Part shown: positions 7,407 to 32,835 of the stretch, piece after piece | Layout: each line of letters begins with the position of its first letter | Position numbering within the stretch: the stretch's first letter is position 1 | NCBI RefSeq assembly: GCF_020567425.1 | Contig: NZ_JAJCVJ010000002.1 | Coordinates: 535,068-599,067, forward strand | Direction of reading: 5' to 3' | Length of the DNA: 64,000 nucleotides | Origin: Salinirubrum litoreum | GTDB taxonomy: Archaea; Halobacteriota; Halobacteria; Halobacteriales; Haloferacaceae | Translations under genes and position numbers: made by a program | Notes under the pieces: generated by a model | What the model saw: the letters and a program-made list of their open reading frames with translations, nothing else | What the model was told of the DNA's origin: nothing | The model's database searches: none

Positions 7407-8366
7407 TCAGGGGTCGACGCGCAGGATCCACTTCTCGGGCGTGTCCAGTTCCTCGTCGGTCGGCAGGTTGTCCGGGTGGTCCCAGACACGACTCGCTGCC
7501 TGCACGCCGCGCCGGTCCGCGACCGCCGTGAAGAACGCCGCGCCGCGTTCGTACTGCCGGCGCTTCAGACCGAGACCGAGCGCCCGGCGAATCAGTTGCG
7601 CGAGTGGCCCACCGCCACTGCGCCGGGCGTCGAGTTTCGCCCGGAGGTCGCTGTAGTCGTCGTCGAACGCCCAGTCCATCAGCAGTTCGGCGTACCCCTC
7701 CACGGCCGTCATCGCGGTGTCGAGTTCCCGGAACGCCTGCCGGTCCACGCCGCCGTCGGCGAGTGCCTCGATGCCCTGCTCCATGCGCTGTTCGAGGTGT
7801 GTCGAGAGCCACGGGGCGGCCCCGAACTCGGCGGCGTGGGCCACCTCGTGGAACGCGATCCAGCGCCGGAACCGGGGGTAGTCCACGTCCAGCGAGTCGG
7901 CGACCTTCACGATGTTCGGCCGGACGAAGTAGAGCCCGTGGTCGGCGTCGTCCGCCTCCGCGAGCAAGAGGGGGTCGTACTGGCCGAGGACGTTGTTGGC
8001 GAGAAACGAGAGCATGACCGCCATCGTCCCGGTGTTGAGGACGCGCGTGACGCCCGGCAGGACCGAGACGCCGTGTTCCTCGACGGGTGCCATCACCCGG
8101 CGGAAGGTCCGGACGTTGGCGTCGATCCAGTGGTGGCGGTTCTGCACCTCCACGGTGTCGGGCAGATCGAACTCGACGCCCGCGACCGTCTGCAGGCGGG
8201 TTCTGGCGTCACGCACGTCCGAGGCGAAACCCTCGCGTTCCTCGGCCGAGAGCGTCAGATCGCCCGGATCGGTCGACGACTTGGCGGCCTCGGCGACGGC
8301 GTCCCAGTCGATGACGCCGGTGCCCGAGGCGGTCGTGACCGCCCGGACGCTCCGAAAGAGGTTCAT
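7407..8366 (-). CDS. zinc-dependent metalloprotease (DUF2342-like, HExxH)
   Basis: FHEVAHAAEF HExxH motif; start at the internal MNLFRS is likely. Confidence 0.6.
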   Translation of the reverse strand: MNLFRSVRAVTTASGTGVIDWDAVAEAAKSSTDPGDLTLSAEEREGFASDVRDARTRLQTVAGVEFDLPDTVEVQNRHHWIDANVRTFRRVMAPVEEHGVSVLPGVTRVLNTGTMAVMLSFLANNVLGQYDPLLLAEADDADHGLYFVRPNIVKVADSLDVDYPRFRRWIAFHEVAHAAEFGAAPWLSTHLEQRMEQGIEALADGGVDRQAFRELDTAMTAVEGYAELLMDWAFDDDYSDLRAKLDARRSGGGPLAQLIRRALGLGLKRRQYERGAAFFTAVADRRGVQAASRVWDHPDNLPTDEELDTPEKWILRVDP

Positions 8367-8668
8367 GCACACCTGTCGGGTCCGCCCCGACAAAACACTT
8401 GTTGCGGGTCCTATCACGGGCCGAACTACCGATCCTGTGACGACCTGTCACGCGAAGAGCGTGGAACCCACGTAGTTTTTAATACCCCGGCGTGTAGCTT
8501 CGGGCAACATCGCCCGTGGGTAAGTGCGGATCGGCCGACGTGGTCGGTCTCGCACGCGGGGTCCAGCGACCGACGTGCTGTAAGACGCCGGGGCCGATGG
8601 CCCCCGACTGCGGCTTTGCGTGAGCACACTCCGCCACACGACGTGGCTTTCGATGCTCGGATTCAACA

Positions 8669-10021
8669 ATGGAAATCGAAATCGCAACAATCGGCGGTTA
8701 CGAAGAGGTTGGCCGGCAGATGACGGCCGTTCGCGCGGGCAGCGACGTCGTCATCTTCGACATGGGCCTCAACCTCTCGCAGGTCCTGATCCACGACAAC
8801 GTGGAGACGGAGAAGATGCACAGTCTCGACCTGATCGACATGGGCGCGATCCCGGACGACCGGGTCATGTCCGACCTCGAGGGTGACGTGCAGGCCATCG
8901 TGCCGACGCACGGCCACCTCGACCACATCGGCGCGATCTCGAAACTCGCCCACCGGTACAACGCGCCGGTCGTCGCCACGCCCTTTACCATCGAACTGGT
9001 GAAACAGCAGGTGCAGGGCGAGAACAAGTTCAACGTCGAGAACGACCTGATCAAGATGGACCCCGGCGAGACGATGTCCATCGGCGACTCGGGCAACGTC
9101 GACTTGGAGTTCGTCAACGTCACCCACTCGATCATCGACGCGATCAACCCGGTGCTCCATACGCCGGAGGGGGCCATCGTCTACGGCCTCGACAAGCGGA
9201 TGGACCACACGCCGGTCATCGGCGACCCCATCGACATGAAGCGGTTCCGCGAGATCGGCCGCGAGGGCAACGGCGTCCTCGCGTACATCGAGGACTGTAC
9301 GAACGCCGGCCGCAAGGGTCGGACCCCCTCGGAGTCGGTCGCCCGACGCCACCTGAAGGACGTGATGACCTCGGTGGAGGACTACGACGGCGGCATCGTC
9401 GCCACGACGTTCTCCAGCCACATCGCCCGTGTGAAGAGTCTCGTCGAGTTCGCACAGGACATCGGCCGCCAGCCGGTCCTCCTGGGTCGCTCGATGGAGA
9501 AGTACTCGGGCACCGCAGAGCGCCTGAACTTCGTCGACTTCCCGGACGACCTCGGGATGTACGGCCACCGGAAGTCGGTGGACCGGACGTTCAAGCGGAT
9601 CATGAAGGAGGGCAAGGAGGACTACCTGCCCATCGTCACCGGCCACCAGGGCGAGCCACGCGCGATGCTCACCCGGATGGGCCGCGGCGAGACGCCGTAC
9701 GAACTGGACGACGGCGACAAGGTCATCTTCTCGGCACGGGTCATCCCGGAGCCGACGAACGAGGGCCAGCGCTACCAGTCCGAGAAACTGCTCGGGATGC
9801 AGGGCGCGCGCATCTACGACGACATCCACGTCTCCGGCCACCTGCGCGAGGAGGGCCACTACCAGATGCTCGACGCGCTCCAGCCGAAGAACATCATCCC
9901 GGCGCACCAGAACCTCAAGGGCTTCGCGCCGTACGTCGACCTCTGCCGGAGCGAGGGCTACTCGCTGGGCCGTGACCTCCACGTCACGCAGAACGGCAAC
10001 ATGATCCAACTGGTGGAGTGA
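8669..10021 (+). CDS. rnj: ribonuclease J (metallo-beta-lactamase / beta-CASP)
   Basis: 450 aa; HGHLDH motif; archaeal RNase J length and N-terminus. Confidence 0.8.
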
Positions 10022-11067
10022 TGACACAGGACGCGACGGAACAGCGGGTACTCGACGCGGTGGCAGCACGCCGTGAACTCGTCAACGACGCCATCGACGA
10101 GGAGTTGCCGATGTCGGAGCCACCACGGCTCTGGGAGGCGACTCGGTACCTGCTGGAAGCCGGCGGGAAGCGGCTCCGCCCGACCGTCGTCCTGCTCGCA
10201 GCCGAGGCACTCGCGGACGTGGAGCCGTTGTCGGCCGACTACCGATCCTTCCCGGCGCTCGACGACGCGACCATCGACGTGATGGCCGCCGCCGTCAGCC
10301 TGGAAGTCATCCAGTCGTTCACCCTGATCCACGACGACATCATGGACGACGACGACCTCCGGCGCGGCGTCCCGGCGGTCCACGAGGCGTACGACACCTC
10401 CACCGCCATCCTCGCGGGGGACACGCTGTACGCGAAGGCGTTCGAGTTGATGACGAACACCGACGCGCCCCCCGAGCACGCCCTCGAGGCGACCCGGCTG
10501 CTGGCGACGACCTGTATCCGCATCTGCGAGGGACAGGCCCTCGACGTGGAGTTCGAGCGCCAGACCGACGTGCTCCCGGAGGAGTACCTGGAGATGATCG
10601 AGCACAAGACCGCCGTGCTGTACGGGGCGTCGGCCGCGACGCCGGCCGTGTTGCTCGGTGCCGACGAGGAGACCGTCGAGGCGCTCTACCGGTACGGCAT
10701 CGACTCCGGGTGTGCCTTCCAGATCCAGGACGACGTGCTGGACCTGACGGTCCCCTCGGAGAAACTCGGCAAACAGCGCGGCTCCGATCTCGTCGAGAAC
10801 AAGGAGACGATCATCACGCTCCACGCGCGCCAGCAGGGCGTCGACGTCGACGGCCTCGTGGACGCCGACGACCCCGAGGAGGTCACGGAAGCCGAGATCG
10901 ACGACGCCGTCGCCGAACTGGAGGCGGCGGGCAGTATCGACTACGCCCGCGAGAAGGCACAGGAGTTGACAGACCGGAGCAAACAGCGACTGGCCGTGCT
11001 CCCGGACAACGAGGCCCGCAGTCTGCTCGAGGACCTCGCGGACTACCTCATCACGCGCGGCTACTGA
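10018..11067 (+). CDS. idsA: geranylgeranyl diphosphate synthase (short-chain trans-prenyltransferase)
   Basis: FARM and SARM DDxxD motifs ([11 protein letters not shown]; FQIQDDVLD); start overlaps the RNase J stop. Confidence 0.8.
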
Positions 11068-11085
11068 TCGTCGTCGGCCGTCTTT

Positions 11086-11532
11086 CTACGCGAGTCCGAA
11101 CAACAACAGCAGGTTCCACGCCGTCACCAGCGTCCCGAACAGACCGAGTCCCACCGGGAGGAAGTACGGGAGCAGTCTGTCGCCGGCCAGCGCCGAGTGG
11201 TGGGCGATTGCGAGACACGCCAGCATCGCGCCGAGTTTGACCGCCACGAGGCCCGCGAGGCCGAAGGTAGCGACGCCGCCGGCGACGACCGGGTTCGACT
11301 CGGCGACCCACGGGACGAACCAGACGATGGCGACGGTCGTCACCGTGTCGCCGACGCCGTAGCCGGCGGTGGCGAAGATCCACGCCCAGTAGAAGCGGTT
11401 CGGCGAGAGGTGGGTGGCTTCGAGCGAGAGCAGTCGGGCGACCCCGTGCCGGCGAGTCTGCGTCACGACGGGTCGTCGCGCCCTGAGAACAAGAAGATAG
11501 CGCGCCGGCTGTCCGCACGGCTCACTGGACAC
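11086..11532 (-). CDS. hypothetical membrane protein
   Basis: Hydrophobic ORF; true start uncertain (possible internal GTG). Confidence 0.35.
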   Translation of the reverse strand: MSSEPCGQPARYLLVLRARRPVVTQTRRHGVARLLSLEATHLSPNRFYWAWIFATAGYGVGDTVTTVAIVWFVPWVAESNPVVAGGVATFGLAGLVAVKLGAMLACLAIAHHSALAGDRLLPYFLPVGLGLFGTLVTAWNLLLLFGLA

Positions 11533-11833
11533 CCCGGCCCGACCGGCGGGGGACGACAGAGCCGGTGGCGTACAGCGAGTAGCCGAACGCCGCGAAGCCG
11601 ACGGCCGTCAGCACACTGCCGAGTCGGAGACCCAGGCTCTGTGACAGCGGCGCGACGTGGTGGAGCGCGCTCGTCACGGAGCCGAGGGTGACGAGCAGGA
11701 AACCGGTCGCTAGCGCGTGAAGCTGTCGGGAATCACGGTCGCGGGCGACACGGAAGGCGAGCAGCGCCAGTCCACCGCCCAGCAGGAACGTCACCGTCTT
11801 CGCCGTGACGAGGAGTGTGTACGTCGGTTGCAT
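11522..11833 (-). CDS. small hypothetical membrane protein
   Basis: Start at MQPTY; 3 predicted TM helices. Confidence 0.4.
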   Translation of the reverse strand: MQPTYTLLVTAKTVTFLLGGGLALLAFRVARDRDSRQLHALATGFLLVTLGSVTSALHHVAPLSQSLGLRLGSVLTAVGFAAFGYSLYATGSVVPRRSGRGVQ

Positions 11834-11968
11834 GGTCACCTCCGCGCGGTCGTATGCCACGCAGTCGGTTGTAAGTCCCCGCCAGTTCCCAGTGAGCGAA
11901 AATTCGACGCGCGCCGGACGAACGTGTTCGGGACCGAGTTTTCGGGACTGCGGGACCGACACGACGGT

Positions 11969-12421
11969 ATGGCCACGCTCGATGCGGCACCGGCGAACGA
12001 CGACGAGACGACAGCGACGGGCACGGACGAGACCCCACACCCGGCCGACCGGGCGACGACCACCGTCGAGGTGCGTGCGACCGGGAAGGTGCGCGACGCA
12101 CTGCCGAGCCACAGTCTGTCGTTCACCTTCGAGGGCGGGACGCTCCGTGCGTTCCTCGACGCCTTCTTCGCGGAGTACGAGGTGGCCGACCTGCTGCTCG
12201 CCGAGACGGACGCCGATGCGACCACCCGCGGGTGGGCCGACGCCCCGGAACCCGACGCGCTGCGGGGCACCTGGTACCGCAACCCCGAGGGCGAGCAGAC
12301 ACGCACGTACGCCCGCATCTGTGTCAACGGCCGGTTCAACGAGACGCTCGACGGACTCGACACGGAACTCGCAGACGGCGACCGCGTGGCGCTCATCAAC
12401 CCGTTCCTGTACTGCGTCTGA
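11969..12421 (+). CDS. MoaD/ThiS-like beta-grasp protein lacking C-terminal Gly-Gly
   Basis: C-terminal half resembles the MoaD/ThiS fold (ICVNG...GDRVALINPF) but ends in LYCV rather than GG. Confidence 0.4.
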   Translation: MATLDAAPANDDETTATGTDETPHPADRATTTVEVRATGKVRDALPSHSLSFTFEGGTLRAFLDAFFAEYEVADLLLAETDADATTRGWADAPEPDALRGTWYRNPEGEQTRTYARICVNGRFNETLDGLDTELADGDRVALINPFLYCV

Positions 12422-12457
12422 GACGAGCGAGGACGAGCAGACAGATCGCTCCCGCGC

Positions 12458-13384
12458 TCACTCCCGATCCAGCCGCGACAGCCCGTGCCAGAGCGCGTCG
12501 ACCATCTGAGCCTCGCCGTCGGCGGCGGGATCGGTCTCGCTCCAGCCACGGGCCAGGGCGTCCTCGACGACCGCCAGCGAGTGGTTCTCGAAGTTGTTCA
12601 TCCCCCGGAACTCCTCCAGGGCCTCGCGTTCCGCCTCGCCGAACGCGTCGGTGTCGCCGCGAGCGTCGGCGACGAGGAACCCCAGTTCGGCGAGCGTGTC
12701 GGCCACGGCAGTCGCCGTCTCGCCGTCCAACTCGCGGAGGTCGTCGGGTTCCTCGCGGGCCAGGAGTGTCACGTCGTACAGTTTGAAGACGCGCTCCAGT
12801 TCGTCGATAGGGGTTTCGTGGTCGTCGACCCGGACGTCGATCCAGCGGTCGTTCTTCGCGTCGTAGCCGCCCTCGGGCTTGACGACGTACAGCGCGGCGG
12901 ACTGCTCGCCGCGACTGTCGCCGCCGGCCTCGTTGCCGGCGTGGAGCGCGGCGAGGAGTCGCTCGGGCAGGCCACCCTCGGTCGTCTCGTAGGCGTCGGC
13001 CATCGCCGTCAGCGTCTCGCGGTTCTCCAAGATGTTCCCCTGGACGGTGTAGGTCTCGCCCTGCACGTCGCCGGCCACCTCGAAACAGTCGTCGCCGGTG
13101 AACGCCGCGACGGAGCCGTCGGCACCGACGACGCCGACCTGTCGGGACTCGGCCTCGTCGTCGACGGTGGTCAACTCCGCGATGGTCTCCTCGGCGGTGT
13201 GGCCCGCCCGGAGGAGGTCGAGGCCCTCGGGGCCGTAGGCGACGTTGGCGAACGACTGGGTGGCGATGGCCCCCGCGTCGGCGGCCGCGAAGGGCACCAC
13301 GGAGCCGACGCTGACGAACTTCGACTGGACAGCGACGCCGACGGCGTCCTGTTCGGGGTCGCGTGCGACGATTGAGAACGTCAT
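12458..13384 (-). CDS. DUF1028 family protein (Ntn-hydrolase-like)
   Basis: Start MTFSIVARD typical of DUF1028; paralog at 42187. Confidence 0.6.
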   Translation of the reverse strand: MTFSIVARDPEQDAVGVAVQSKFVSVGSVVPFAAADAGAIATQSFANVAYGPEGLDLLRAGHTAEETIAELTTVDDEAESRQVGVVGADGSVAAFTGDDCFEVAGDVQGETYTVQGNILENRETLTAMADAYETTEGGLPERLLAALHAGNEAGGDSRGEQSAALYVVKPEGGYDAKNDRWIDVRVDDHETPIDELERVFKLYDVTLLAREEPDDLRELDGETATAVADTLAELGFLVADARGDTDAFGEAEREALEEFRGMNNFENHSLAVVEDALARGWSETDPAADGEAQMVDALWHGLSRLDRE

Positions 13385-13439
13385 GGTACTCGCTGTGGTG
13401 TGGGGGCGACAAAAAGGGTCGAGTACGTTCGAGACGGGA

Positions 13440-13700
13440 ACTTGGGTGATTCGAGTGATGGCGGGAACTCTGTCGGATACGTCGCAGACGACGAGCGGTG
13501 AAAGCCCCCGGCGTCTCGACCGGCCCCTTTCAGTCCCACCCGGGTTCGTGTCCCATCGTGTCGTCACTGGTCGTCACCCGGCGAACCGACTGCGAGTTCG
13601 GAACCCGGTCGTCGCAGTAGTCTCCCCACACCTCCCCGACTGCTGAGCGACCGACCTGCGAGCAGGCCCTCGCTGTCGCTCGGACACTGCTCGGGTCGGA
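13440..13700 (-). repeat. dispersed structured repeat, copy A (short form, minus orientation)
   Basis: Shares modules with copies at 38670, 46500, 51800, 54420, 55980 and 59800 (GCCAGCAGTCGGGGAGG, GGGACTGAAAGGGGCCGG, GGGGGCTTTCACCGCTCGTCGT). Confidence 0.7.
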
Positions 13701-13766
13701 TCGCCACCTGCTCGCGTCCTCGTTGGATTCCAGCGTGGGCGAGAAGGGGATGACGGCCCTGTTGTC

Positions 13767-13795
13767 GGGAGAGGTATATAAATGAGTCGCGCTTC
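13767..13795 (+). promoter_or_regulatory. TATA-like boxes upstream of uvrC
   Basis: tatataaat and tataaat in the AT-rich stretch upstream of uvrC. Confidence 0.35.
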
Positions 13796-13875
13796 GTATA
13801 AATGGTCGTCGCGGGTCGGGAGCACTCGACCGCGTCGCGTCACCCTCAAGCCGATCCGACCGTTACCACCACCGA

Positions 13876-15612
13876 ATGGAGACCGAGACCGTCCGCGACC
13901 GCGCCCGCGAGTTCCCGCGCGACCCGGGCGTCTACCAGTTCCACGCCGGCGAGGCGGTGCTGTACGTCGGGAAGGCCGTGGATCTGCGGGACCGGGTGGC
14001 GAGTTACGCCGACCCCCGGAGCGAGCGCATCCGCCGGATGGTCGCCCACGCCGACCGTCTCGACTTCGCCGTCACCGACACCGAGACGCAGGCACTCCTC
14101 CTCGAAGCGAACCTCATCAAGCGCCACCAGCCGCGGTACAACGTCCGCCTGAAGGACGACAAGTCCTACCCGCTCGTCCAGTTCACCGACCACCCGGTCC
14201 CCCGGATCGAGATCACCCGCGACCCGAACGACGCCGCGACCGTCTTCGGACCCTACACGAGCAAAGGCGACGTGGAGGTCGTCGTCAAGGCCGTCCGCGA
14301 GATCTACGGCCTGCGGGGCTGTTCCGACCACAAGTACGACAACCGCGACCGGCCCTGCCTCGACTACGAGATGGGGCTCTGCACCGCCCCCTGTACCGGC
14401 GAGATACCGGCCGAGGACTACCGCGAGGACACGGAGACAGCCCGCCGGTTCTTCGCGGGCGAGACGGGGATCCTCGCGGACCCGCTCCGCCGGGAGATGG
14501 AACAGGCCGCAGCAGAGCAGAACTTCGAGCGCGCCGCGAACCTCCGCGACCGACTGGGCATCGTCGAGTCGTTCCACGGCACGGGCGGCGAGGCGGTCGC
14601 CGGCGACACCGAGAGCGAACGCGACGTGGACGTTCTCGGCGCGGCGATCACCGGCGACGACGCGGTCGTCGCGCGCCTCCACGCCGAACGCGGCCAACTC
14701 GTGGACCGGTCGCGCCACCACCTCGACGCGCCGGAGGGCGAGGACCGCGTCGCCGACCTGCTGGCGGCGTTCGTGCCGCAGTACTACGCCGAACGCGACC
14801 TGCCCGACGCCCTCCTGCTCTCTGAACGCCCGGACGACGCGGAACTGCTCGCGTGGCTCGACTCTGAGGGTGTCGCGGTCCGGGTGCCCGGCGCGGGCAG
14901 AGAGGCCAAACTGGTCGAACTCGCGCTGAAGAACGCCCGGAGCGGCCCGACGCGCTCGGACGGCCTCGCGGCGCTGGCGGCCGAACTCGGTCTCGACGCG
15001 GCGGAGCGCATCGAGGGGTTCGACGTGAGCCACGCGCAGGGGACGGCGGTCGTCGGCAGCGACGTCTGTTTCGTCGGCGGCTCCGCCGAGAAGGCCGACT
15101 ACCGCCGGAAGAAACTCCCCGACAGAAACGACGACTACGCGAACATGCGCGACCTGCTCCGGTGGCGCGCCGAGCGCGCGGTCGAGGAGCGAGACGACCG
15201 GCCCAACCCCGACCTCCTGTTGATCGACGGCGGCGACGGCCAACTCGGCGCGGCGCGGGACGCGCTCCGGGAGGTCGGCTGGGACGTGCCGGTCGTCGCC
15301 CTCGCGAAAGAGGAGGAACTGGTGATCACGCCCGACGGCGTGCTCGACTGGGACAGCGACGCGCCGCACCTGCACGTCCTCCAACGAGTCCGCGACGAGG
15401 CGCACCGCTTCGCGGTCCAGTACCACCAGACACTCCGGGACGAAGTCTCGACCGTCCTCGACGACGTGCCCGGCGTCGGCCCGCAGACGCGCCGGCGACT
15501 CCTCCGGCGGTTCGGCAGTGTCGACGGCGTGCGCGCGGCGTCGGTCGCAGAACTTCAGGACGTAGACGGCGTCGGCGAGACGACGGCCGAGGCGATCAAG
15601 TCGCGGCTCTGA
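13876..15612 (+). CDS. uvrC: excinuclease ABC subunit C
   Basis: N-terminal GIY-YIG (PGVYQF...LYVGKA), 578 aa; C-terminal HhH region. Confidence 0.9.
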
Positions 15613-15618
15613 GTGGCG

Positions 15619-16953
15619 TCACGAGGACCGTTCCCGGTCCTCGGCCGGCGTCTCGTCCCCGTCGTCGGGTGCCGACTCGCTGTCGGCGTCCGCATCCTCG
15701 CCGGGAGGCTCTCCGTCTTCTCGCTGCTCGTCGGAGGCACCGGTCGCTGCCGTCGGGTCCTCAGTGGCCGGGTCGTCCATCTCGTCGGCATCGGGTGCGG
15801 CTTCGTCCGCCGACGCCTCGCTGTGACCGCCCCAGTCTCTGGCCTCGTCGGGGTCGGGTCGCTCGGCGCGCGTCCCCCGGTCGCCGGTCGGTTCGCGGGA
15901 CTCGACGTCTCCCGGCGAATCCTCGTCGTCTGTCGTCTCGTCTACGTCCTCGTCGTCTGTCGTCTCGTCTACGTCCTCGTCGTCTGTCGTCTCGTCTACG
16001 TCCTCGTCGTCTGTCGTCTCGTCTACGTCCTCGTCGTCTGTCGTCTCGTCTACGTCCTCGTCGTCTGTCGTCTCGTCTACGTCCTCGTCGTCTGTCGTCT
16101 CGTCTACGTCCTCGTCGTCTGTCGTCTCGTCTACGTCCTCGTCGTCTGTCGTCTCGTCTACGTCCTCGCTGTCGGTCACCTCGTCGTCGCCGCCGATCTG
16201 TCCCACACTCGGGTCGTCGGCGTGGACGCGGGTCTGGTCGACCTGCACCTCGGGGGCGTGGTGTGGTCCGTGTTCTTCGACGACGTCCTCCGGATCGGGG
16301 ACGGTCTCGTCGGTGTCGGTCTCTGTCGCGGTCGAGTCGGTCTCGTCTTCGGCCGCCACCTCGTCCTCGGTCGCATCCACCCCGTCTTCGGTCGTGATCG
16401 GGTCGACGTCGGCGGCGTCGACTGGCTGTTCGGGGCCGTCGGGTGCCTCGGCGTCCGGAACGGATTGCTCCGGCGGGTCGAGAGACGCCGCCTCCGGGCG
16501 TGCGTTCTCGGGGGTATCGGCGGTCTCCGTCTCCCCGCCGTCGGTCGCGTCCTGGAACGCCGAGGGCATCTCGGGGGCGTTCATCCCGGACTCCTCCATC
16601 CCCTCCCTGCCGGCTTCGATCCCCTCGCCGACCATGTCACCGATGTCGGTCAGACCGACGATGAACGCCGCGATCAGGTAGAGCCCCCCGGACGGCAGGA
16701 TGACCATCCCGAGGACCTCCTGTGGGAACCCGAGCACGAGCAGTGCGAGCGAGGCTCCGAGCGTCGGGAGCGACCGTTTCAGGAGGATACCGGCGGTGCC
16801 CAGCATCGCCGCGCCGATAACGAGCGCGAACAGTTGGTCGCTCGGGGCTGCCTGCCCGCCCTGTCGTCGGAACCACCAGAGGACCCCGGCCAACAGAATC
16901 GGGGTGCCGATCCCGATGAGATAGGCGTAGGTCCGCGCGCGTAACCGAGCCAT
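15619..16953 (-). CDS. membrane protein with long acidic tandem-repeat tail (DEDVDETTD x9)
   Basis: Start at MARLRAR; N-terminal TM helices followed by a D/E/T-rich region including nine identical 9-aa repeats. Confidence 0.6.
   Translation of the reverse strand: MARLRARTYAYLIGIGTPILLAGVLWWFRRQGGQAAPSDQLFALVIGAAMLGTAGILLKRSLPTLGASLALLVLGFPQEVLGMVILPSGGLYLIAAFIVGLTDIGDMVGEGIEAGREGMEESGMNAPEMPSAFQDATDGGETETADTPENARPEAASLDPPEQSVPDAEAPDGPEQPVDAADVDPITTEDGVDATEDEVAAEDETDSTATETDTDETVPDPEDVVEEHGPHHAPEVQVDQTRVHADDPSVGQIGGDDEVTDSEDVDETTDDEDVDETTDDEDVDETTDDEDVDETTDDEDVDETTDDEDVDETTDDEDVDETTDDEDVDETTDDEDVDETTDDEDSPGDVESREPTGDRGTRAERPDPDEARDWGGHSEASADEAAPDADEMDDPATEDPTAATGASDEQREDGEPPGEDADADSESAPDDGDETPAEDRERSS
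15921..16165. repeat. perfect 27-nt tandem repeat x9 inside the coding sequence
   Basis: cctcgtcgtctgtcgtctcgtctacgt reiterated with nucleotide identity. Confidence 0.9.
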
Positions 16954-17083
16954 ACAGGCCCGTTCGCCCCCCACGGGTATAACGACTTTCGGACTCCGGC
17001 CGGCGAAACGAACGCCGAGACGGGAGTCTGTGGTCGCTCGTGGCGGCCCCACGCCGCGCGCACACCGGCACACACTCGCCGAC

Positions 17084-17177
17084 CGGTCACCGCCGCGTCG
17101 TCCTGCGCGGAAGCGTTAACACATACTCGCCGACCGGTCACCGCCGCGTCGTCCTGCGCGGAAGCGTTAACACATCG
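17084..17177. repeat. 47-bp tandem duplication in the divergent promoter region
   Basis: ctcgccgaccggtcaccgccgcgtcgtcctgcgcggaagcgttaacacat present twice, head to tail. Confidence 0.85.
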
Positions 17178-17195
17178 CGGCCGAAAGAGTGCAGT

Positions 17196-18398
17196 ATGTC
17201 CTCCATCTTCCGCGAGTTGGGTCGGCTCAGCGCCGAACTCGACGGCAGTTCGGGTCAGCGGTCCGGCGGGCAGCGTGGGTCGGGCGGATCGGGCAGTCGT
17301 AGCTCCGGCGGCCGCGGACCGGGGAACGTGATCCCGATTCTCACGCTGTTGGGCATCGGTGCGTTGCTCGTGCTGTTCGTCCTGCCGATCCTCGACCTGT
17401 TCACCTTCGTCGCACTGCTCGCACTCCTGGTCGCGGTCGCCACCGTCGCCAGCGCGGTCGAAGTCGTGCAGGCCTACGAGAAACGCGCACTGACGGTGTT
17501 CGGCGAGTACCGGGGACTGCTCGACCCCGGAATCCACTTCGTCCCGCCGTTCGTCTCGAAGGCGTACACTTTCGACATGCGGACCCAGACAATCGACGTG
17601 CCCCGGCAGGAGGCGATCACCGAAGACAACTCCCCGGTCACCGCCGACGCCGTGGTCTACATCCGGGTGATGGACGCGAAGAAGGCCTTCCTAGAGGTCG
17701 ACGACTACACCCGCGCCGTCTCGAACCTCGCCCAGACGACGCTCCGTGCCGTGCTGGGCGACATGCAACTCGACGAGACGCTCTCCCGGCGCGACCACAT
17801 CAACGCCCGCATCCGCCGGGAACTCGACGAACCCACCGACGAGTGGGGCGTGCGCGTCGAGTCGGTCGAGGTGCGCGAAGTGAAACCTTCGCCGGCGGTC
17901 GAGAACGCGATGGAACAGCAGACCTCCGCCGAACGCCGCCGCCGGGCGATGATCCTCGAAGCGCAGGGGAGTCGCCGGAGCGCCGTCGAGACGGCACAGG
18001 GTGACAAGCAGTCGAACATCATCCGGGCACAGGGGAAGAAACAGGCGCAGATTCTCACGGCACAGGGTGACGCCATCTCGACCGTCCTCCGGGCGAAGTC
18101 CGCCGAGTCGATGGGTGAACGCGCCATCATCGACAAGGGGATGGAGACACTCTCGTCGATCGGTCAGGGCGACTCGACGACGTTCGTCCTCCCGCAGGAA
18201 CTGACCAGTCTGCTCGGACGCTACGGACAACAGTTGTCTGGCTCCGACGTGCAGGACTCCGCGGGCCTCGACAGCAAGCAGTTCGACGAGGAGACCCGCG
18301 AGATGCTCGGCCTCGACGACATCGAGGAGATCGTCGAGAACCTGCCGACCGAGACCGCGAACGGCGTCGAGTCGGCCGAGTTGGCACGCGAGGAGTAG
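17196..18398 (+). CDS. SPFH/band-7 (stomatin/prohibitin-like) membrane protein
   Basis: N-terminal TM then SPFH domain (FGEYRGLLDPGIHFVPPFV...); coiled-coil/acidic C-terminus. Confidence 0.85.
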   Translation: MSSIFRELGRLSAELDGSSGQRSGGQRGSGGSGSRSSGGRGPGNVIPILTLLGIGALLVLFVLPILDLFTFVALLALLVAVATVASAVEVVQAYEKRALTVFGEYRGLLDPGIHFVPPFVSKAYTFDMRTQTIDVPRQEAITEDNSPVTADAVVYIRVMDAKKAFLEVDDYTRAVSNLAQTTLRAVLGDMQLDETLSRRDHINARIRRELDEPTDEWGVRVESVEVREVKPSPAVENAMEQQTSAERRRRAMILEAQGSRRSAVETAQGDKQSNIIRAQGKKQAQILTAQGDAISTVLRAKSAESMGERAIIDKGMETLSSIGQGDSTTFVLPQELTSLLGRYGQQLSGSDVQDSAGLDSKQFDEETREMLGLDDIEEIVENLPTETANGVESAELAREE

Positions 18399-18433
18399 CG
18401 ACGGACGCCGAGGTCACCGACGCGGACGCCGAC

Positions 18434-19135
18434 TCACGCGGCGGGCGACGTGGACGCCGCGACCGCCTGTCCCGCGACGTGGGCGACGACGACGAAGACG
18501 TAGAACTGCACGACGAAACCGACAAGCAGGAAGACGAGCGGTGCGGCGACGAGGCTCCCGGCGACCGCGACGAGGCCTGCGAGGAGCATCCCGACGACGT
18601 ACGACTTCGAGAGGGCGACCGCTCTGAGCGCGTCCCAGCGGAACGCCGCACCGAGGTCGTCTTCCACCGCGAGACCGACGAGTGCGGCCGGGAGCAGGTA
18701 GTATGCGAGCAGTGAGAGGAGTGCCCCCAGAAGGATCACGCCGACGAAGACGACGAGAAACAGTGTCGTTCCGGCGGCCGCACCCGCCTCGCTGCCGGCC
18801 GCGCCGGACCCGAGTGCTGCGCCGAACGGGAGTGCGAACACCGCGACGAGGACGCCGCCGACCGTGACGACGAACACGGGCAGGAGGTACGCGAAGACCA
18901 CGAGGAGCGCCTTCAGGCCGTCGACAGCGAGCGTCTCCCAGTCGTCCCACGGCGGGAGTTCGTCGGTGTCGCCCGTGTCGTCGACTGCGTCTCGGAGCAC
19001 CCGGAGGAGGTAGCCGTACAGGAAGACACCGGGCAGGACGAAGATGGCCCCACCCAACTGGATCGCTCCGCCGATCAGCAGTCGTTGCAGCGCCTCGTCG
19101 CCGGACCGTGCGTAGGACAACGCCTCACTCAACAT
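18434..19135 (-). CDS. polytopic membrane protein (DUF4013-like)
   Basis: Pattern resembles the haloarchaeal DUF4013 family; multiple TM helices. Confidence 0.45.
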   Translation of the reverse strand: MLSEALSYARSGDEALQRLLIGGAIQLGGAIFVLPGVFLYGYLLRVLRDAVDDTGDTDELPPWDDWETLAVDGLKALLVVFAYLLPVFVVTVGGVLVAVFALPFGAALGSGAAGSEAGAAAGTTLFLVVFVGVILLGALLSLLAYYLLPAALVGLAVEDDLGAAFRWDALRAVALSKSYVVGMLLAGLVAVAGSLVAAPLVFLLVGFVVQFYVFVVVAHVAGQAVAASTSPAA

Positions 19136-19219
19136 ACCTGTCGCAACGGTTCAGTGTCGGCTACTTAGTCGTTGGCAGACGCGCCGGCATCGGCGGAGGG
19201 TCGAGTCGAGTACGCCGTG

Positions 19220-21280
19220 TCAGAAGTCGGGGTCGATCTCGGGGGCGACGCCGTCGTCCTCGGCGTCGAGCGCGAAGTCCCGGCGCAGTTCCCGGATGCG
19301 GTCGCGGATGTCGGCCGCGAGTTCGAACTCGAGGTTGCCGGCGGCCTCGTCCATCTTGTCCTCCAGCACCGCGATGCGCTGTTTCGCTTCCTCGGCGTCG
19401 GCCACGTCGTCGGTGCTGGTGCCGGCGGTGTCGGTCTTGCTCCCCGGGAGCGAGGTCTCGCCGACCTCCTTCTCGATCGTCGTCGGCGTGTAGCCGTGTT
19501 CCTCGTTGAACTCCTGCTGGATCGCTCTGCGGCGCTGGGTCTCCTCGATGGCCGACTCCATCGCGTCGGTCGTCCGGTTCGCGTACAGCACGACCTCGCC
19601 CTCGACGTTCCGGGCGGCGCGGCCCATCGTCTGCACCAGCGTCGTCTCCGAGCGCAGGAACCCCTCCTGGTCGGCGTCGAGGATGGCGACGAGACTCACC
19701 TCGGGGATGTCGAGGCCCTCTCGCAGGAGGTTGATCCCGACGAGCACGTCGATCTGGCCGAGTCGCAGGGAGCGGATGATCTCGTGGCGTTCGAGGGTGT
19801 CGGTCTCGTCGTGCATGTACTCGACCGCGACGCCGGACTCCTCTAAGAACTCGGTCAGGTCCTCCGCCATGCGCTTGGTCAGCGTCGTGACGAGGACGCG
19901 TTCGTCGCGGTCGATGCGCTCTTCGATGCGACCCATCAGGTCGTCCACCTGGTCGTCGGCGCTCTCGACGGTGACCTTCGGGTCGACGAGGTGGGTCGGG
20001 CGGACGATCTGTTCGACGATCTGGTCGCTGTGCTCGCGTTCGTAGTCGCCCGGCGTCGCCGAGACGTACAGCGTCCGGTCGGTCTTCTCCTCGAACTCCT
20101 CGAAGGTGAGGGGTCGGTTGTCGTAGGCGGTCGGCAGGCGGAAGCCGTTCTCCACGAGCGAATCCTTCCGGGACTTGTCGCCCGCGAACTGGCCTTTGAT
20201 CTGCGGCAGGGTCTGGTGGGACTCGTCGACCACGGTGAGGAAGTCGTCCGGGAAGTAGTCCAGCAGGGTGTAGGGAGCCTCGCCCGGTTCGCGGTCGGAG
20301 AGGTGGACCGAGTAGTTCTCGATGCCCGAACAGTAGCCCGCCTCTCTCAGCATCTCCAGGTCGAAGGTCGTGCGCTCCTCGATGCGCTGGGCGGCCACCA
20401 GGTCGCCCTGTCGCTCGAAGTGGCGGACGCGGTCGTCCATCAGGTCCTCGATCTCCGCGATGGCGTTCTCGAGGCGTTCTTCGGGGATCGAGTAGTGTTC
20501 CGCCGGGTGGATCAGGACGGCCGGTTCTTCGGACTTGACCTCCCCGTCGAGGGTGTCGATCTTCAGCATCCGGTCGATCTCGTCGCCCCAGAACTCGATC
20601 CGGACCGCGTACCGGCCGTACATCGGGAACACCTCGACGGTGTCGCCCCGGACGCGGAAGGTGCCCTGCTGGAAGTCCACGTCGTTGCGCTCGTAGTTCA
20701 GATCGACCAACTGGGCGAGCAGTTCGTCGCGGTCGATCTCCTGGCCCACGGAGAGTTCCAGCGACATGTCGACGTAGTTGCGCGGGTCACCGAGCCCGTA
20801 GATGGCCGAGACGGAGGCGACGACGATCACGTCGTCCCGCGTGAGCAGCGACCGCGTCGCGGAGTGGCGCAGGCGGTCGATCTCCTCGTTGATCGACATC
20901 TCCTTGTCGATGTAGGTGTCGGTCTGTTCGACGTAGGCCTCCGGCTGGTAGTAGTCGTAGTAGGAGACGAAGTACTCGACGGCGTTGTCCGGGAACAGGT
21001 TGCGGAACTCCTCGTACAACTGTGCGGCGAGGGTCTTGTTGTGCGCGATGACGAGGGTGGGTTGCTGGAGTTCCTCGACCGTCCACGAGACGGTGTTAGT
21101 CTTCCCGGAGCCAGTCACCCCGAGCAGGGTCTGTTCGTCCATCCCGGACTCGTAGCCGGCCACGAGTTGCTCGATGGCTTCGGGTTGGTCACCGGCCGGG
21201 TCGAAGGGGGCGTCGACCCGGAATCGATTGTCGGCTCCCGGTCGGTCCGGCTGGAGCGGCCCGGACGTGCTGTCGCTCAT
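19220..21280 (-). CDS. uvrB: excinuclease ABC subunit B
   Basis: 686 aa; helicase motifs ([12 protein letters not shown]) and UvrB C-terminal domain. Confidence 0.9.
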
Positions 21281-21365
21281 CGTGTGGTAGTTGGCCCGGA
21301 ACTACTTGACCGGTGCGCTCGGGACGCTCCCGACCCGTCCGCCGGCGACCGCGACAGCCGAGAGT

Positions 21366-21552
21366 GCCGCCACCACCACCGTGACCGACCGCCACCACCA
21401 CCGTGACCGACCGCCACCACCACCACCGACCGACCGCCACCACCGACCGACCGCCACCACCACCGTGACCGACCGCCACCACCACCACCGACCGACCGCC
21501 ACCACCACCACCGACCGACCGCCACCACCACCACCGACCGACCGCGACCGCA
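21366..21552. repeat. imperfect microsatellite (GACCGACCG-CCACCACCACC)n, about 9 units
   Basis: Direct reading of tandem units between uvrB and the downstream ORF. Confidence 0.85.
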
Positions 21553-21560
21553 ATCCGCAG

Positions 21561-21630
21561 ACGTCGGCCTTTGCCGAACTCACGAACGTCGGCTTTTGCC
21601 GATCCCTCCCGACGTCGGCTTTTGCCGAAC
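21561..21630. promoter_or_regulatory. three copies of palindromic site ACGTCGGC-TTTT-GCCGAAC (TCGGC-N4-GCCGA)
   Basis: Copies at 21561, 21586 and 21612, about 25 bp apart; candidate operator array. Confidence 0.5.
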
Positions 21631-21718
21631 CAGTACACCGCGAGAGCCGACCGAACACTCGGCGAGGTCGACGCACGACAGAGAAACCGGTTTGAGGCCC
21701 CGAGGAGAAGGCCCGGTC

Positions 21719-22000
21719 GTGACCCGAGAACTGCTTCAGCAGGCGAGCGACGAACTCCGGCAGGCGAGCGAACTCGCGCCCGAGGACGTGACCGAGCGCA
21801 TCTACGAGCAGTCGAACCAACTGGCGAAACTCGCGACCGCCGACCGGGGGCCGGACCACGGCCGACTCGCGCGACACACGAACGCCCTCGCCGAGATCGC
21901 CGACTCGCTGGACGAGGCCGGCGCGGGCGAGGCCGCAGACCACGTCCGGGACGCCCGGAGCCTGATCAGCGAGTACCGGAAAGACCTGCCGGGCGTCTGA
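21719..22000 (+). CDS. small hypothetical acidic protein
   Basis: ORF 21596..22000; a GTG start at 21719 avoids overlap with the palindrome array; start uncertain. Confidence 0.35.
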   Translation: MTRELLQQASDELRQASELAPEDVTERIYEQSNQLAKLATADRGPDHGRLARHTNALAEIADSLDEAGAGEAADHVRDARSLISEYRKDLPGV

Positions 22001-22001
22001 G

Positions 22002-22877
22002 TCAGTCGAGGAGGTCCGCGACTGCGGAGACTTGCGCCTCGACCGCCTCGCGGGCGTCGTCGCCGACCTCGTGGTGCGGGCGTCGGCTGTAGCCGACGGG
22101 CGCGTCGAGGAACCGCATCGCGGCCTTCAGCCCCGGGACGCCGTACTCGGCGGTGATCGTCCGGTTCAGGTCGAGCAGGCGGCGATTCAGTCGGCGGGCG
22201 GCGTCGTGGTCGCCGGCGCGGTGCCGCGCGAGCATCTCGGCGCAGGCGGACGGCGCGACGTTCGCCAGCGCGAGGACGCCGCCGTCCGCCCCGGCGTCGA
22301 GTGCGTGGGCCAGCACGCCGGCGGTGCCGACGAACAGGTCGAAGTCGGCGTCCTCGGTCAGTACGCGCTTGCGCTGGAACGTCGCCAGGTCGCTCGTGGT
22401 GTCTTTCATCCCGGCGACGTTCGGGTGCTCGGCGAGTCGCCCGACGACCACCGGATCGAGTGCAACGTCGGTGTACACCGGGACGCTATAGAGGTAGACT
22501 GGCAGGTCGCTCGCGTCTGCCACGTCGCGGTAGTACGCCTCCAGCGTCTCGTCGTCGTGTCCGTAGTAGAACGGCGTGACGACGAGTGCGCCGTCCGCGC
22601 CGGCCGACGCGGCGCGGTCGGTCGCCGCAAGCGTCTCCCGGAGTCCGGGGCTCCCGGTGCCGGCGAGGACCGGCACCGAGGCTTCCTCGGCGACGACCTC
22701 GATCACGCGAGCGCGTTCGTCGGCTGTCATCAGTTCCGTCTCGCCGTTCGAGCCACAGGGGACGAGAAAGTCCACGCCCCGCGATTCGACCCACTCGACG
22801 AGTCGCCGGAGTCTGTCGGTGTCGAGGTCGCCCTCGCGGGTGAACGGCGTCGCCAGCGGCGGTCCGATTCCGTGCAT
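22002..22877 (-). CDS. dihydrodipicolinate synthase family protein (DapA/KDG-aldolase-like)
   Basis: DapA family pattern with Schiff-base Lys region (VAGMKDTT); start at MHGIG or 27 nt upstream. Confidence 0.75.
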   Translation of the reverse strand: MHGIGPPLATPFTREGDLDTDRLRRLVEWVESRGVDFLVPCGSNGETELMTADERARVIEVVAEEASVPVLAGTGSPGLRETLAATDRAASAGADGALVVTPFYYGHDDETLEAYYRDVADASDLPVYLYSVPVYTDVALDPVVVGRLAEHPNVAGMKDTTSDLATFQRKRVLTEDADFDLFVGTAGVLAHALDAGADGGVLALANVAPSACAEMLARHRAGDHDAARRLNRRLLDLNRTITAEYGVPGLKAAMRFLDAPVGYSRRPHHEVGDDAREAVEAQVSAVADLLD

Positions 22878-23221
22878 GCGACCACCGACGGTCGGGGGGT
22901 ACAAATCGCTGTCCCGTGGGGCACAGTATAGTGGGCTGTCGCCGCCGAACGCTGTCGAACCACGACTGTCGAACGGGTGAGACGCGGGTCACACGCCCGT
23001 CTGACGCGGATTTAAGTGAAAACCACCCCATCCGCAGAGTGGGCGCGCACAACTGACGGCCTCAGTTCCCATCCTCCCACCCGCGCGCCCGGCACACCCG
23101 ACACCCACCCCCCTTTCGTTCCGGCTTCCCCCGGAGCACCCTCTTTCCCCCAGTCGGGAGGACTCCCGAGTGCCGACCGGCGACACCGGATTTATACGCG
23201 CCAGCGACCTACGACCCGAAG

Positions 23222-24358
23222 ATGGCACCTGCCGACCCGACGGATCGGCTCCCCGTCGAGGCGCTGACCGCCGTGTTCGACCTCCGGGAGACGCAGACCG
23301 ACGGCGAGCGCGTCTACTTCTACGGTGACGCACTCGCCCCCGAGCGGATGCTCTTGGAGGAGGCGTGGCCGGCGTTCCGGGAGGCGGGCTACGAGATCCA
23401 GTTGGCCCGGACGCCGAGCGACCACGACGTGGTCGTCGCCAAGCCGACCGACACCGGCGTCGAGGGCGTCCCGTGGAAGAACCTCCTGCTCCTGCTGGCG
23501 ACTATCGTCTCGACGCTGCTGGTCGGCGCGACCGCGTGGTACTACATCCCCGCCTCGGAGATTCTGGCGAACCCCCTCCGGGCGCTGGAGGCGTGGCCCT
23601 TCACCGCCGCCGTGCTGGGGGTCCTGCTGACGCACGAACTCGGCCACTACGTCGTCGGGCGCTACCACGGCGTCGACGTGTCCCTCCCCTACGTGATCCC
23701 CTTCATCCTCCCGTTCGGCACGATGGGCGCGATCATCCGGATGCGCGGGCAGATGCCCGACCGGAAGGCGCTGTTCGACATCGGCGTGGCCGGCCCACTC
23801 GCTGGGCTGGCGGCGACCGTCGTCGTCACCGCAGTCGGGCTACTCCTCTCGCCGGTCGAGGTCCCGGCCCGCGTGCTGGCCGCCGAGGGACAGGCGATCT
23901 ACTTCCAGAACCCGCTCCTGCTGGAGTGGATCGCCGCACTCCTCGGCACACCGACCGAGTTCGCGGCCGGCCAGACGGTCCACCCCGTGATCATGGGTGG
24001 CTGGGTCGGGATGTTCTTCACCGTCCTGAACCTCCTGCCGGTCGGCCAACTCGACGGCGGGCACATGACGCGAGCGATGGTCGGCGAGCGACAGGAGACC
24101 GTCGCGGCGATGGTCCCGGTCGCCCTGTTCGGCCTCGCGGCGTACCTCTACTACGTTCGCGGCCTCGGGATCAACGACTCGGTCGGCCTGTGGGCCTTCT
24201 GGGGGCTGTTCTCGACGTTCATCGCGTTCAACGGCCCGGCGAACCCCATCGACGACGAGACGGAACTCGGCTGGCAGCGGATCGCGGTGGGCCTGTTCAC
24301 GTTCCTGCTCGGCGCGACCTGTTTCATGCTCGTGCCGATCCAGTTGATGACAGTCTGA
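23222..24358 (+). CDS. M50 site-2 protease family metalloprotease
   Basis: HELGHY HExxH within a TM helix, polytopic; 378 aa. Confidence 0.75.
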   Translation: MAPADPTDRLPVEALTAVFDLRETQTDGERVYFYGDALAPERMLLEEAWPAFREAGYEIQLARTPSDHDVVVAKPTDTGVEGVPWKNLLLLLATIVSTLLVGATAWYYIPASEILANPLRALEAWPFTAAVLGVLLTHELGHYVVGRYHGVDVSLPYVIPFILPFGTMGAIIRMRGQMPDRKALFDIGVAGPLAGLAATVVVTAVGLLLSPVEVPARVLAAEGQAIYFQNPLLLEWIAALLGTPTEFAAGQTVHPVIMGGWVGMFFTVLNLLPVGQLDGGHMTRAMVGERQETVAAMVPVALFGLAAYLYYVRGLGINDSVGLWAFWGLFSTFIAFNGPANPIDDETELGWQRIAVGLFTFLLGATCFMLVPIQLMTV

Positions 24359-24429
24359 GTCACCCGGTTGTAGGTCGTGTTACGACGCACTCGCGTCGGT
24401 GTCTCTCGAACTGGACTGTGGTCAGTTCT

Positions 24430-30698: not shown

Positions 30699-31307
30699 TC
30701 AGGGGTCGAACCGGATCAGTCCCGCCACGTCGCGGGCGAAGGCGTCCGCGTCCGACCCGAAGGAGTCGGCGTACCGCACCAGCAGCGTGATGATCGTCTC
30801 GGGTTCGACGACAGCGTAGCCGTTCTCACGCGAGAGCAGTCCCGCACGCTCCAAGTCGCCGGCGTAGTTCGAGACGGTCGCACGGGAGACGTCCAGCGCC
30901 GCCGCGAGGTCGCCGCCGGTCGCGTCGGGGTCGCGCAGGAGTTCGATCACCATCCCACGGGCGGTCGGTCGCCGGAGGTAGCCGAGCGCGGCCTGTTCGA
31001 ACTCCGAGAACTGGTCGGCCGGGTAGAAGCGCCGGTAGTCGCCGTCACGCCGGGCCTCCACGACGCCGCTGTCCAGCAGTCGTCGGAGGTGGTGCTGGGT
31101 CTCGCCGGTGCCGAGTTTCAGGTCGTCGCGGACCTTCGAGAAGTGTGCGCCGGGCGTGGCCGAGAGGTAGCCGACGATGGCGTCGCGAGCGTCGCTCTGT
31201 GACGCCTCGCCATCGTTCCGCAGGCCGACGAATGGGGTCGCGGCTCCGAGTGCCGCGAACCGTTTCAGCGTCGCCCGCTTCTCCTCGTCCACGCCACGCT
31301 CTGCCAT
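30699..31307 (-). CDS. double winged-helix transcriptional regulator
   Basis: Two wHTH-like segments (QHHLRRLLDSGVV; ATVSNYAGDLERAGLL). Confidence 0.5.
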   Translation of the reverse strand: MAERGVDEEKRATLKRFAALGAATPFVGLRNDGEASQSDARDAIVGYLSATPGAHFSKVRDDLKLGTGETQHHLRRLLDSGVVEARRDGDYRRFYPADQFSEFEQAALGYLRRPTARGMVIELLRDPDATGGDLAAALDVSRATVSNYAGDLERAGLLSRENGYAVVEPETIITLLVRYADSFGSDADAFARDVAGLIRFDP

Positions 31308-32641: not shown

Positions 32642-32740
32642 ACTTCGGCCTTGGGTCACGGTGCCGATAAGCCTTCCCACGTGAGAGAGTGCCGGACAGG
32701 GGGGCCGACCGAGAGCGGGCGGGCCGCCGACCCGTATCGA

Positions 32741-32835
32741 CCGGCCATCTCCGACCGACAGCCACCGGTCGTCTCCGACCGACAGCCACCGGTCGTCTCC
32801 GACCTGCATCCACCGACCGTCTCCGACTCCCTCAC
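32741..32835. repeat. about 24-bp direct repeats (GTCGGAGACGACCGGTGGCTGTCG-like) x4 upstream of SPFH paralog 2
   Basis: Direct reading; contains the ACCGGT core also present in the 47-bp duplication upstream of SPFH paralog 1. Confidence 0.7.

Follow-up and report, generated by a model that had tools for sequence, protein, structure and literature searches.

What is the meaning of a perfect array of short repeats inside a gene for a very acidic membrane protein, and has this protein anything to do with the SPFH-domain protein encoded back to back with it? The locus in question lies in a 64,000-nucleotide stretch of Salinirubrum litoreum DNA (NCBI RefSeq assembly GCF_020567425.1, contig NZ_JAJCVJ010000002.1, positions 535,068 to 599,067 of the forward strand), called here the window, and all positions below are positions in this window. 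An earlier note, made from the letters alone, had pointed out the array, a duplicated segment in the intergenic region, and the possibility that the acidic protein is a partner of its SPFH neighbour. The reading that we favour is that of a lineage-restricted protein made of a membrane anchor and an acidic tail in which a minisatellite recently arose, next to an independent SPFH gene with a duplicated promoter, the adjacency of the two genes being without function. Taken as a whole, we regard it as fairly probable.

Structure and conservation of the acidic membrane protein gene

The acidic gene and its conserved parts are as follows.

15619-16953, minus strand: acidic membrane protein gene, 444 aa, stop codon included (from the list of open reading frames, ORFs)
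16639-16953, minus strand: four-helix membrane anchor, aa 1-105, dN/dS 0.08
16528-16638, minus strand: conserved acidic juxtamembrane segment, aa 106-142, dN/dS 0.04
16189-16302, minus strand: tail island 2, VPDPEDVVEEHGPHHAPEVQVDQTRVHADDPSVGQIGG, histidine-rich, aa 218-255, dN/dS 0.05
15826-15903, minus strand: tail island 3, ESREPTGDRGTRAERPDPDEARDWGG, aa 351-376, dN/dS 0.08

Long ORFs come cheaply in GC-rich DNA, and the acidic gene was therefore compared with its counterpart in a sister lineage. Searched exhaustively by phmmer, the first 140 aa of the protein matched, at 96% identity, a metagenomic protein of 402 aa, which belongs to a sister species. Its contigs (L081 and L083) carry uvrB, a DUF4013 gene, a Band_7 gene, the acidic gene and uvrC in the order found in the window, and are collinear with it over some 25 kb at 80-92% DNA identity. 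A 382-aa cluster member (P0005), considered as a length variant, was rejected: it lies on a short contig, and its gene call is cut short at the N-terminus.

The ratio of non-synonymous to synonymous substitution rates (dN/dS) was 0.29 for the whole gene; this value, like all others given here, comes from a single pairwise comparison with one sister species. The juxtamembrane segment was almost unchanged in the alignment with this species, which also delimits islands 2 and 3. In island 2 the ratio was 0.05 despite a dS of about 1.0, and island 3 holds the only tryptophan of the tail. Ratios of 0.37-0.52 were found for the spacers that separate the islands, where alignments are unreliable. The GC content at codon positions 1, 2 and 3 was 0.77, 0.45 and 0.83, and neighbouring genes are alike. 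Because dN/dS is low in the anchor, the juxtamembrane segment and islands 2 and 3, and because GC at third positions matches that of the neighbours, the ORF is identified by its codons as a real gene that codes for a protein and is under selection; it is confined to the Salinirubrum lineage. The same two observations led us to reject an ORF arisen by chance from the high GC content. As read from the alignment, the tail is made of three short conserved islands amid fast-evolving acidic spacers.

The N-terminal transmembrane helices reported in the earlier note for this 444-aa ORF were recovered as four hydrophobic helices, all within residues 1-105. AlphaFold2 also models the anchor as four helices (predicted local distance difference test score, pLDDT, of 79), the fourth of which extends into the juxtamembrane segment (helix 81-123, pLDDT 86-90). 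The tail, announced as some 300 residues rich in D, E and T, has 302 aa (D 26%, E 17.5%, T 12%) with a net charge of -122, and is probably disordered. No Pfam family was found in the full protein (E <= 0.01), in its N-terminal 140 aa (E <= 10) or in the tail alone, and an NCBIfam scan of the protein gave no family either. With the anchor model as query, Foldseek returned from the PDB only generic helical bundles (E >= 0.66).

We propose that the protein probably acts as a membrane-tethered polyanionic tether, of which the conserved islands would be the functional contact sites.

A family of small four-helix proteins related to the anchor

The same phmmer search, in a library of 1.84 billion representative proteins, gave two further matches to small proteins, with E = 6.7e-7 and 2.3e-4. 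A profile built from the first matches collected 36 haloarchaeal proteins of 95-124 aa, the best with E values down to 1e-41. All 36 have four helices and no tail, and in reciprocal tblastn all 36 match window positions 16660-16917. They include WP_369729422.1 from Natrarchaeobius and hypothetical proteins of Halarchaeum salinum, Halobacterium hubeiense and Halorientalis persicus. Aligned with them across all four helices, the 105 aa of the anchor show 21-34% identity; the arginine of loop 2 is kept, and three residues (G75, Q78, L81) do not vary. The family signature LLGFWQAVL, at the turn between helices 3 and 4, reads VLGFPQEVL in the acidic protein (W to P, A to E). Every other member stops at most about 20 residues past helix 4, whereas a tail of about 340 aa follows in the Salinirubrum proteins only.

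Judged from these alignments, the anchor is homologous to small stand-alone proteins and is fused to an extremely acidic tail of about 340 aa. By its changed signature and its length, 444 aa against about 100-120 aa, the acidic protein counts as an atypical member: a divergent, extended one of this family of small proteins. No Pfam family was found among the scanned members, and none of them matched a Pfam family that would agree with the label “Eha subunit C” attached by the Joint Genome Institute (JGI) to two of the small homologues; this label was rejected. A metagenome scan brought three small homologues only and no further tailed ones, and a pattern scan in which the N-terminal domain was sought in reference genomes gave no match. 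A word-indexed protein search with the N-terminal 140 aa also gave no match, but was not relied on, as it missed proteins 96-100% identical (P0001, P0040) present in the collection.

Some small homologues stand in contexts resembling mobile elements. That of Halarchaeum salinum (locus L088, 1-10918) also holds halo-primase, PRiA4_ORF3 and TFIIB-like genes, and another homologue (P0021) is borne on a plasmid of Halorussus limi.

The 27-nt array and its copy number

15920-16168, minus strand: in-frame 27-nt minisatellite, 9.2 perfect units (Tandem Repeats Finder score 498, 100% matches)

The nine perfect repeats announced in the earlier note are thus present. The coding unit is GAC GAG GAC GTA GAC GAG ACG ACA GAC, which reads DEDVDETTD; in the protein, one SEDVDETTD is followed by eight DEDVDETTD and a partial DED. 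The units are perfect, their length is a multiple of three, and the whole array lies inside the coding region, in the variable acidic spacer between tail islands 2 and 3. In the sister species there is no array, and a non-repetitive acidic spacer of 26 aa stands in its place, against about 95 aa with nine units. The sister species also has a single copy of the 51-bp unit that is duplicated in S. litoreum upstream of the SPFH gene (see below), from which it follows that both the array and the 51-bp duplication are recent. In the syntenic 13.6 kb of the sister species no tandem array of comparable score was found; the same region of S. litoreum has three.

We concluded from this comparison that the array is a recent in-frame minisatellite specific to S. 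litoreum, which bears out the recent expansion proposed before. It most likely would have arisen by replication slippage or unequal recombination.

The earlier note had also supposed a length-variable locus, and had suggested a comparison of repeat numbers within the species. Exact look-ups identify the UvrC and SPFH proteins of the window as those of S. litoreum, of the family Haloferacaceae. In a second S. litoreum assembly, GCA_042657545.1, the array has five units instead of nine, and the acidic protein 408 aa (WP_380699879.1). The number thus differs. Two loci of that assembly (L092 and L093) correspond to window positions 7876-24398 (16.5 kb) exactly, minus 108 nt, or four units, of the array. 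The shorter array, in L092, measures 141 nt, which is the longest length congruent with 249 (modulo 27) expected from a k=127 de Bruijn graph with one pass through the loop; k=141 would give the same single-pass length. Since five units are what a k=127 collapse is expected to leave, real instability is not proven.

The difference may then be an assembly artefact, the array being stable and having been collapsed by a short-read assembler in one assembly, or mis-sized in both. We give this explanation close to an even chance. Besides the array length, it accounts for the identity of the rest of the 16.5 kb, as expected for one strain sequenced or assembled twice, and the contigs carrying the two versions are nearly equal in size (1,473,751 vs 1,474,004 bp). 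On the other hand, perfect arrays of nine 27-nt units are intrinsically prone to slippage, the identity of the units implies a very recent gain or an ongoing homogenisation, and the collapse is deduced from arithmetic alone. Whatever explains nine versus five units, the expansion is recent and species-specific, since the sister spacer is non-repetitive and of 26 aa. As two public assemblies of S. litoreum disagree at this place, the locus makes a useful test case of repeat collapse versus real instability.

The spacer between islands 2 and 3 has about 59 aa in the five-unit version, and the differences in array length leave the reading frame and the islands intact. As its site is an acidic spacer of low complexity, gain or loss of units lengthens or shortens a linker and keeps the frame. 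In the tether proposed above, this length would be nearly neutral. What the locus illustrates is a small haloarchaeal membrane protein that gained a long acidic tail, lengthened by a minisatellite in a spacer while the islands were kept.

In-frame minisatellites are known in disordered regions of prokaryotic proteins, and the Ser-Asp repeat regions of the staphylococcal Sdr/Clf proteins are in-frame variable-number tandem repeats. The S. litoreum array resembles these in having a unit that is a multiple of three, perfect copies, a low-complexity acidic spacer as its site, and a copy number that differs between two assemblies. It differs from the staphylococcal repeats in its archaeal host, in a repeat region that is probably cytoplasmic, in that the variation between isolates is possibly an assembly artefact, and in having no known link with surface display or immune evasion.

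The duplicated segment upstream of the SPFH gene

17196-18398, plus strand: SPFH/Band_7 gene, 400 aa, WP_227229975.1 (PF01145, E = 2.4e-43; dN/dS 0.10)
17074-17124, plus strand: distal 51-bp copy, with a second TATA-like GTTAACAC at 17115-17122, a predicted start near 17145 and a leader of about 51 nt; no WW at -10/-11
17125-17175, plus strand: proximal 51-bp copy in native context, with GTTAACAC at 17166-17173, centred 26.5 nt before the SPFH ATG; AA at -11/-10
16977-16991, minus strand: predicted core promoter of the acidic gene, with TTATAC (16982-16977), its centre 26.5 nt before the ATG, and BRE-like CGAAA (16991-16987)

The acidic and SPFH genes diverge from an intergenic region of 242 bp (16954-17195), given before as 240 bp. 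Tandem Repeats Finder detected in it a 51-bp unit in 2.1 copies with one mismatch across 17069-17175. The head-to-tail duplication described before is therefore real and its copies perfect, with the correction that it consists of two copies of 51 bp at 17074-17175, not of 47 bp at 17084-17177. None of the shuffles of the window yielded a match like the perfect 51-mer pair. The duplication was found in both S. litoreum assemblies and, as the comparison of the intergenic regions tells us, is specific to this species.

The haloarchaeal promoter consensus comprises a TTWT TATA box, a recognition element for transcription factor B (BRE) CGAAA and a WW (W is A or T) at -10, and 72% of the transcripts of Haloferax volcanii are leaderless (PMC4983044). 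An A/T-rich box stands at the same distance from the ATG in eight SPFH orthologues and in the second SPFH paralogue of the window. As each 51-bp copy holds the TATA-like box and the sister species has one copy, the duplication appears to have copied the BRE/TATA core promoter of the SPFH gene, which predicts tandem promoters. The proximal one would retain its native context and give a leaderless mRNA. The distal one is probably weaker, because of its leader of about 51 nt and its lack of a -10 WW element. Folding of the predicted leader was no better than that of shuffled sequence (z = -0.64). Of the two roles suggested before for the duplication, promoter or operator, the first is thus retained as a prediction; for an operator there is no evidence, since, upstream of the promoter, the unit shows no conservation in the sister species.

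The acidic gene has a core promoter of its own, about 135-190 bp away from those of the SPFH gene. The AA at -11/-10 predicts a leaderless mRNA here too, and the sister species has nearly the same sequence over the 55 nt or so before the ATG. The SPFH gene is probably a separate, single-gene transcription unit, and its mRNA would be leaderless.

It may be that the 51-bp duplication is a neutral product of slippage, whose distal copy is not a working promoter, and we take this as quite possible, if short of probable. Without a WW at -10/-11 the distal copy offers a different initiation context, its leader has no unusual structure, and the sister species does not conserve the upstream half of the unit. 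Moreover, intergenic tandem arrays are common in the window, with about 8 of period >= 20 in 64 kb; uvrB and the second SPFH gene are among the genes with such arrays upstream. Against neutrality, the distal copy keeps a complete BRE/TATA-like element, the main determinant of archaeal initiation (PMC4983044), and both copies are still perfect. Tandem promoters were seen in H. volcanii by differential RNA-seq (PMC4983044), and the likeness lies in two BRE/TATA-like elements in series, with the proximal one placed for a leaderless mRNA; here, the predicted second promoter stems from a 51-bp duplication, perfect and very recent, which the sister species lacks. With one copy in the sister species and two in S. 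litoreum, the region provides a clean natural example of promoter duplication.

Membrane topology of the tail

Lysines and arginines were counted on the two sides of the membrane domain. The N-terminus and loop 2 together have 5, against 2 for loops 1 and 3; averaged over the small anchor family, the same comparison gives 2.7 against 1.3. As these counts favour N- and C-termini inside the cell (positive-inside rule), the tail most likely faces the cytoplasm. Alternatively, it might be extracellular, a Thr-rich and possibly O-glycosylated surface polyanion that binds cations, in which case the array would vary a surface-exposed structure. Glycosylated acidic stretches occur in haloarchaeal surface proteins, which the DEDVDETTD units, Thr-rich and acidic, resemble, and the positive-inside bias is modest. 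However, with four helices, the arginine-rich N-terminus, which has 3 R, and the K and R of loop 2 put both ends in the cytoplasm, and the protein has neither a signal peptide nor a C-terminal anchor motif, its C-terminus being ...DRERSS. We consider an extracellular tail unlikely.

Still less likely in our opinion is a more active role of the repeats. The in-frame array would be hypermutable in this polyploid haloarchaeon, gain or lose several units between laboratory lineages of one strain, and thereby tune the length of the membrane-tethered tail. With the promoter duplication it would turn this neighbourhood into a hot-spot of slippage, acting both on the tail and on the dosage of the SPFH protein, which the tail perhaps contacts electrostatically.

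Adjacency of the acidic and SPFH genes

NfeD proteins are the usual operon partners of prokaryotic stomatin/flotillin-type SPFH proteins, and the acidic protein resembles them in being a membrane protein encoded beside an SPFH gene. Its neighbour was said to be of the SPFH/stomatin type. The Band_7 domain was found, but the best NCBIfam matches are HflK/HflC/FloT models, all far below their cut-offs, and NCBI names the protein “SPFH domain-containing protein” only. We conclude from these matches that it is a generic SPFH/HflK-like protein and not a demonstrated stomatin, as none of them reaches its cut-off.

A scan of reference genomes with the SPFH protein gave 80 loci in other haloarchaea, at 69-84% identity. 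In none of the 80 was a relative of the acidic N-terminal domain, or uvrC, found within 10 kb. Twelve of them have uvrB nearby and are, for this reason, taken as the orthologous locus. At these orthologous loci the place upstream is taken by other genes: in Halorubrum by an ORF of 418-434 aa, and in Haloferax and its relatives by one for a protein of 165 aa. Conversely, the search for homologues of the N-terminal domain beside SPFH genes, which the earlier note had proposed, led to the 36 small stand-alone proteins, and no Band_7 gene was near them in the 5 genomic contexts examined. No NfeD family was found among the called genes of the identical contig over window positions 7876-24398, as the earlier note had it, and no NfeD domain (PF01957) in the acidic protein by Pfam scans of the full protein, its N-terminal 140 aa and the tail. 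Unlike NfeD proteins, the acidic protein also has no ClpP-like protease domain; its gene is divergent with a separate promoter rather than co-transcribed, and the adjacency is not conserved outside one genus. A literature search on SPFH proteins in haloarchaea, S. litoreum and haloarchaeal tandem repeats found nothing relevant.

It is therefore very improbable that, in place of NfeD, the SPFH protein has the acidic protein as its functional partner, substrate or scaffold: the divergent adjacency retained in both lineages carrying the tailed protein, the lack of a nearby NfeD, the membrane location of both proteins, and a Gly/Ser/Arg-rich, mildly basic stretch of the SPFH N-terminus that could in principle contact a polyanion speak for such a role, but the two carrier lineages, with 85-91% DNA identity, are collinear over the whole ~25 kb, the 80 other SPFH loci have different upstream neighbours, neither they nor the five anchor-homologue contexts show the pairing, the NfeD domain is missing, the core promoters are separate and do not make an operon, and the second SPFH paralogue of the window has no such neighbour. 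The adjacency, seen only where the whole region is collinear, says nothing on function, and would correspond to a lineage-specific rearrangement rather than to a conserved functional pairing. An attractive but unsupported hypothesis is thereby removed.

Returning to the reading proposed at the outset, four points weigh against it. The dN/dS values come from one species pair, and the spacer alignments among them are unreliable. The five-unit assembly is possibly a collapse artefact, so that variability within the species is not proven. The charge bias on which the topology rests is small enough to be compatible with an extracellular tail. Finally, the divergent arrangement is kept in both known carriers, which is weakly compatible with co-regulation. 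The biological importance of the locus is modest. The array and the 51-bp duplication are both real and of young age, and the features of the locus are of kinds already known.

Other genes and repeats of the window

13876-15612, plus strand: uvrC, with Pfam UvrC domains, convergent with the acidic gene
18434-19135, minus strand: DUF4013 gene, convergent with the SPFH gene
19220-21280, minus strand: uvrB
31361-32641, minus strand: a second gene for an SPFH/Band_7 protein, 426 aa, sharing 82% core identity with its paralogue at 17196-18398

Running towards each other, uvrC and the acidic gene end in stop codons 6 nt apart (15610-15621), with no T-run in between, and an overlap of the 3′ ends of their transcripts is probable. 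The sister species has a similar spacing of 7 nt (L081, 11209/11217).

The Gly/Ser/Arg-rich, low-complexity stretch of the SPFH protein covers residues 16-43 (17240-17325). It is 7 aa (SGGSGSR) longer than that of the sister species, another small in-frame length change by the same intergenic region.

The second SPFH paralogue differs from the first in having a single N-terminal helix instead of two, and its C-terminal tail, of about 100 aa, is acidic. At leaderless distance from its ATG stands a TATA-like CTTATC, and further upstream a 24-bp tandem array of 3.7 copies (32740-32827). The gene is flanked by those for an enoyl-CoA hydratase (32832-33542) and a helix-turn-helix (HTH) regulator (30699-31307), with no NfeD.

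Repeats were also present elsewhere in the window. At 21367-21630, in the intergenic region from which uvrB and a DUF7553 gene diverge, CCA/CCG-rich arrays of period 23/62 (about 8 copies, 86-90% matches) are followed by 2.8 copies of a 26-nt unit. These arrays are identical in both S. litoreum assemblies, and the intergenic region has about 330 bp against about 155 bp in the sister species, which makes it another expansion specific to S. litoreum. Two further adjacent arrays were found at 60413-60669, one of period 17/51 nt with 7.5 copies and one of 24 nt with 3.3 copies (98% matches).

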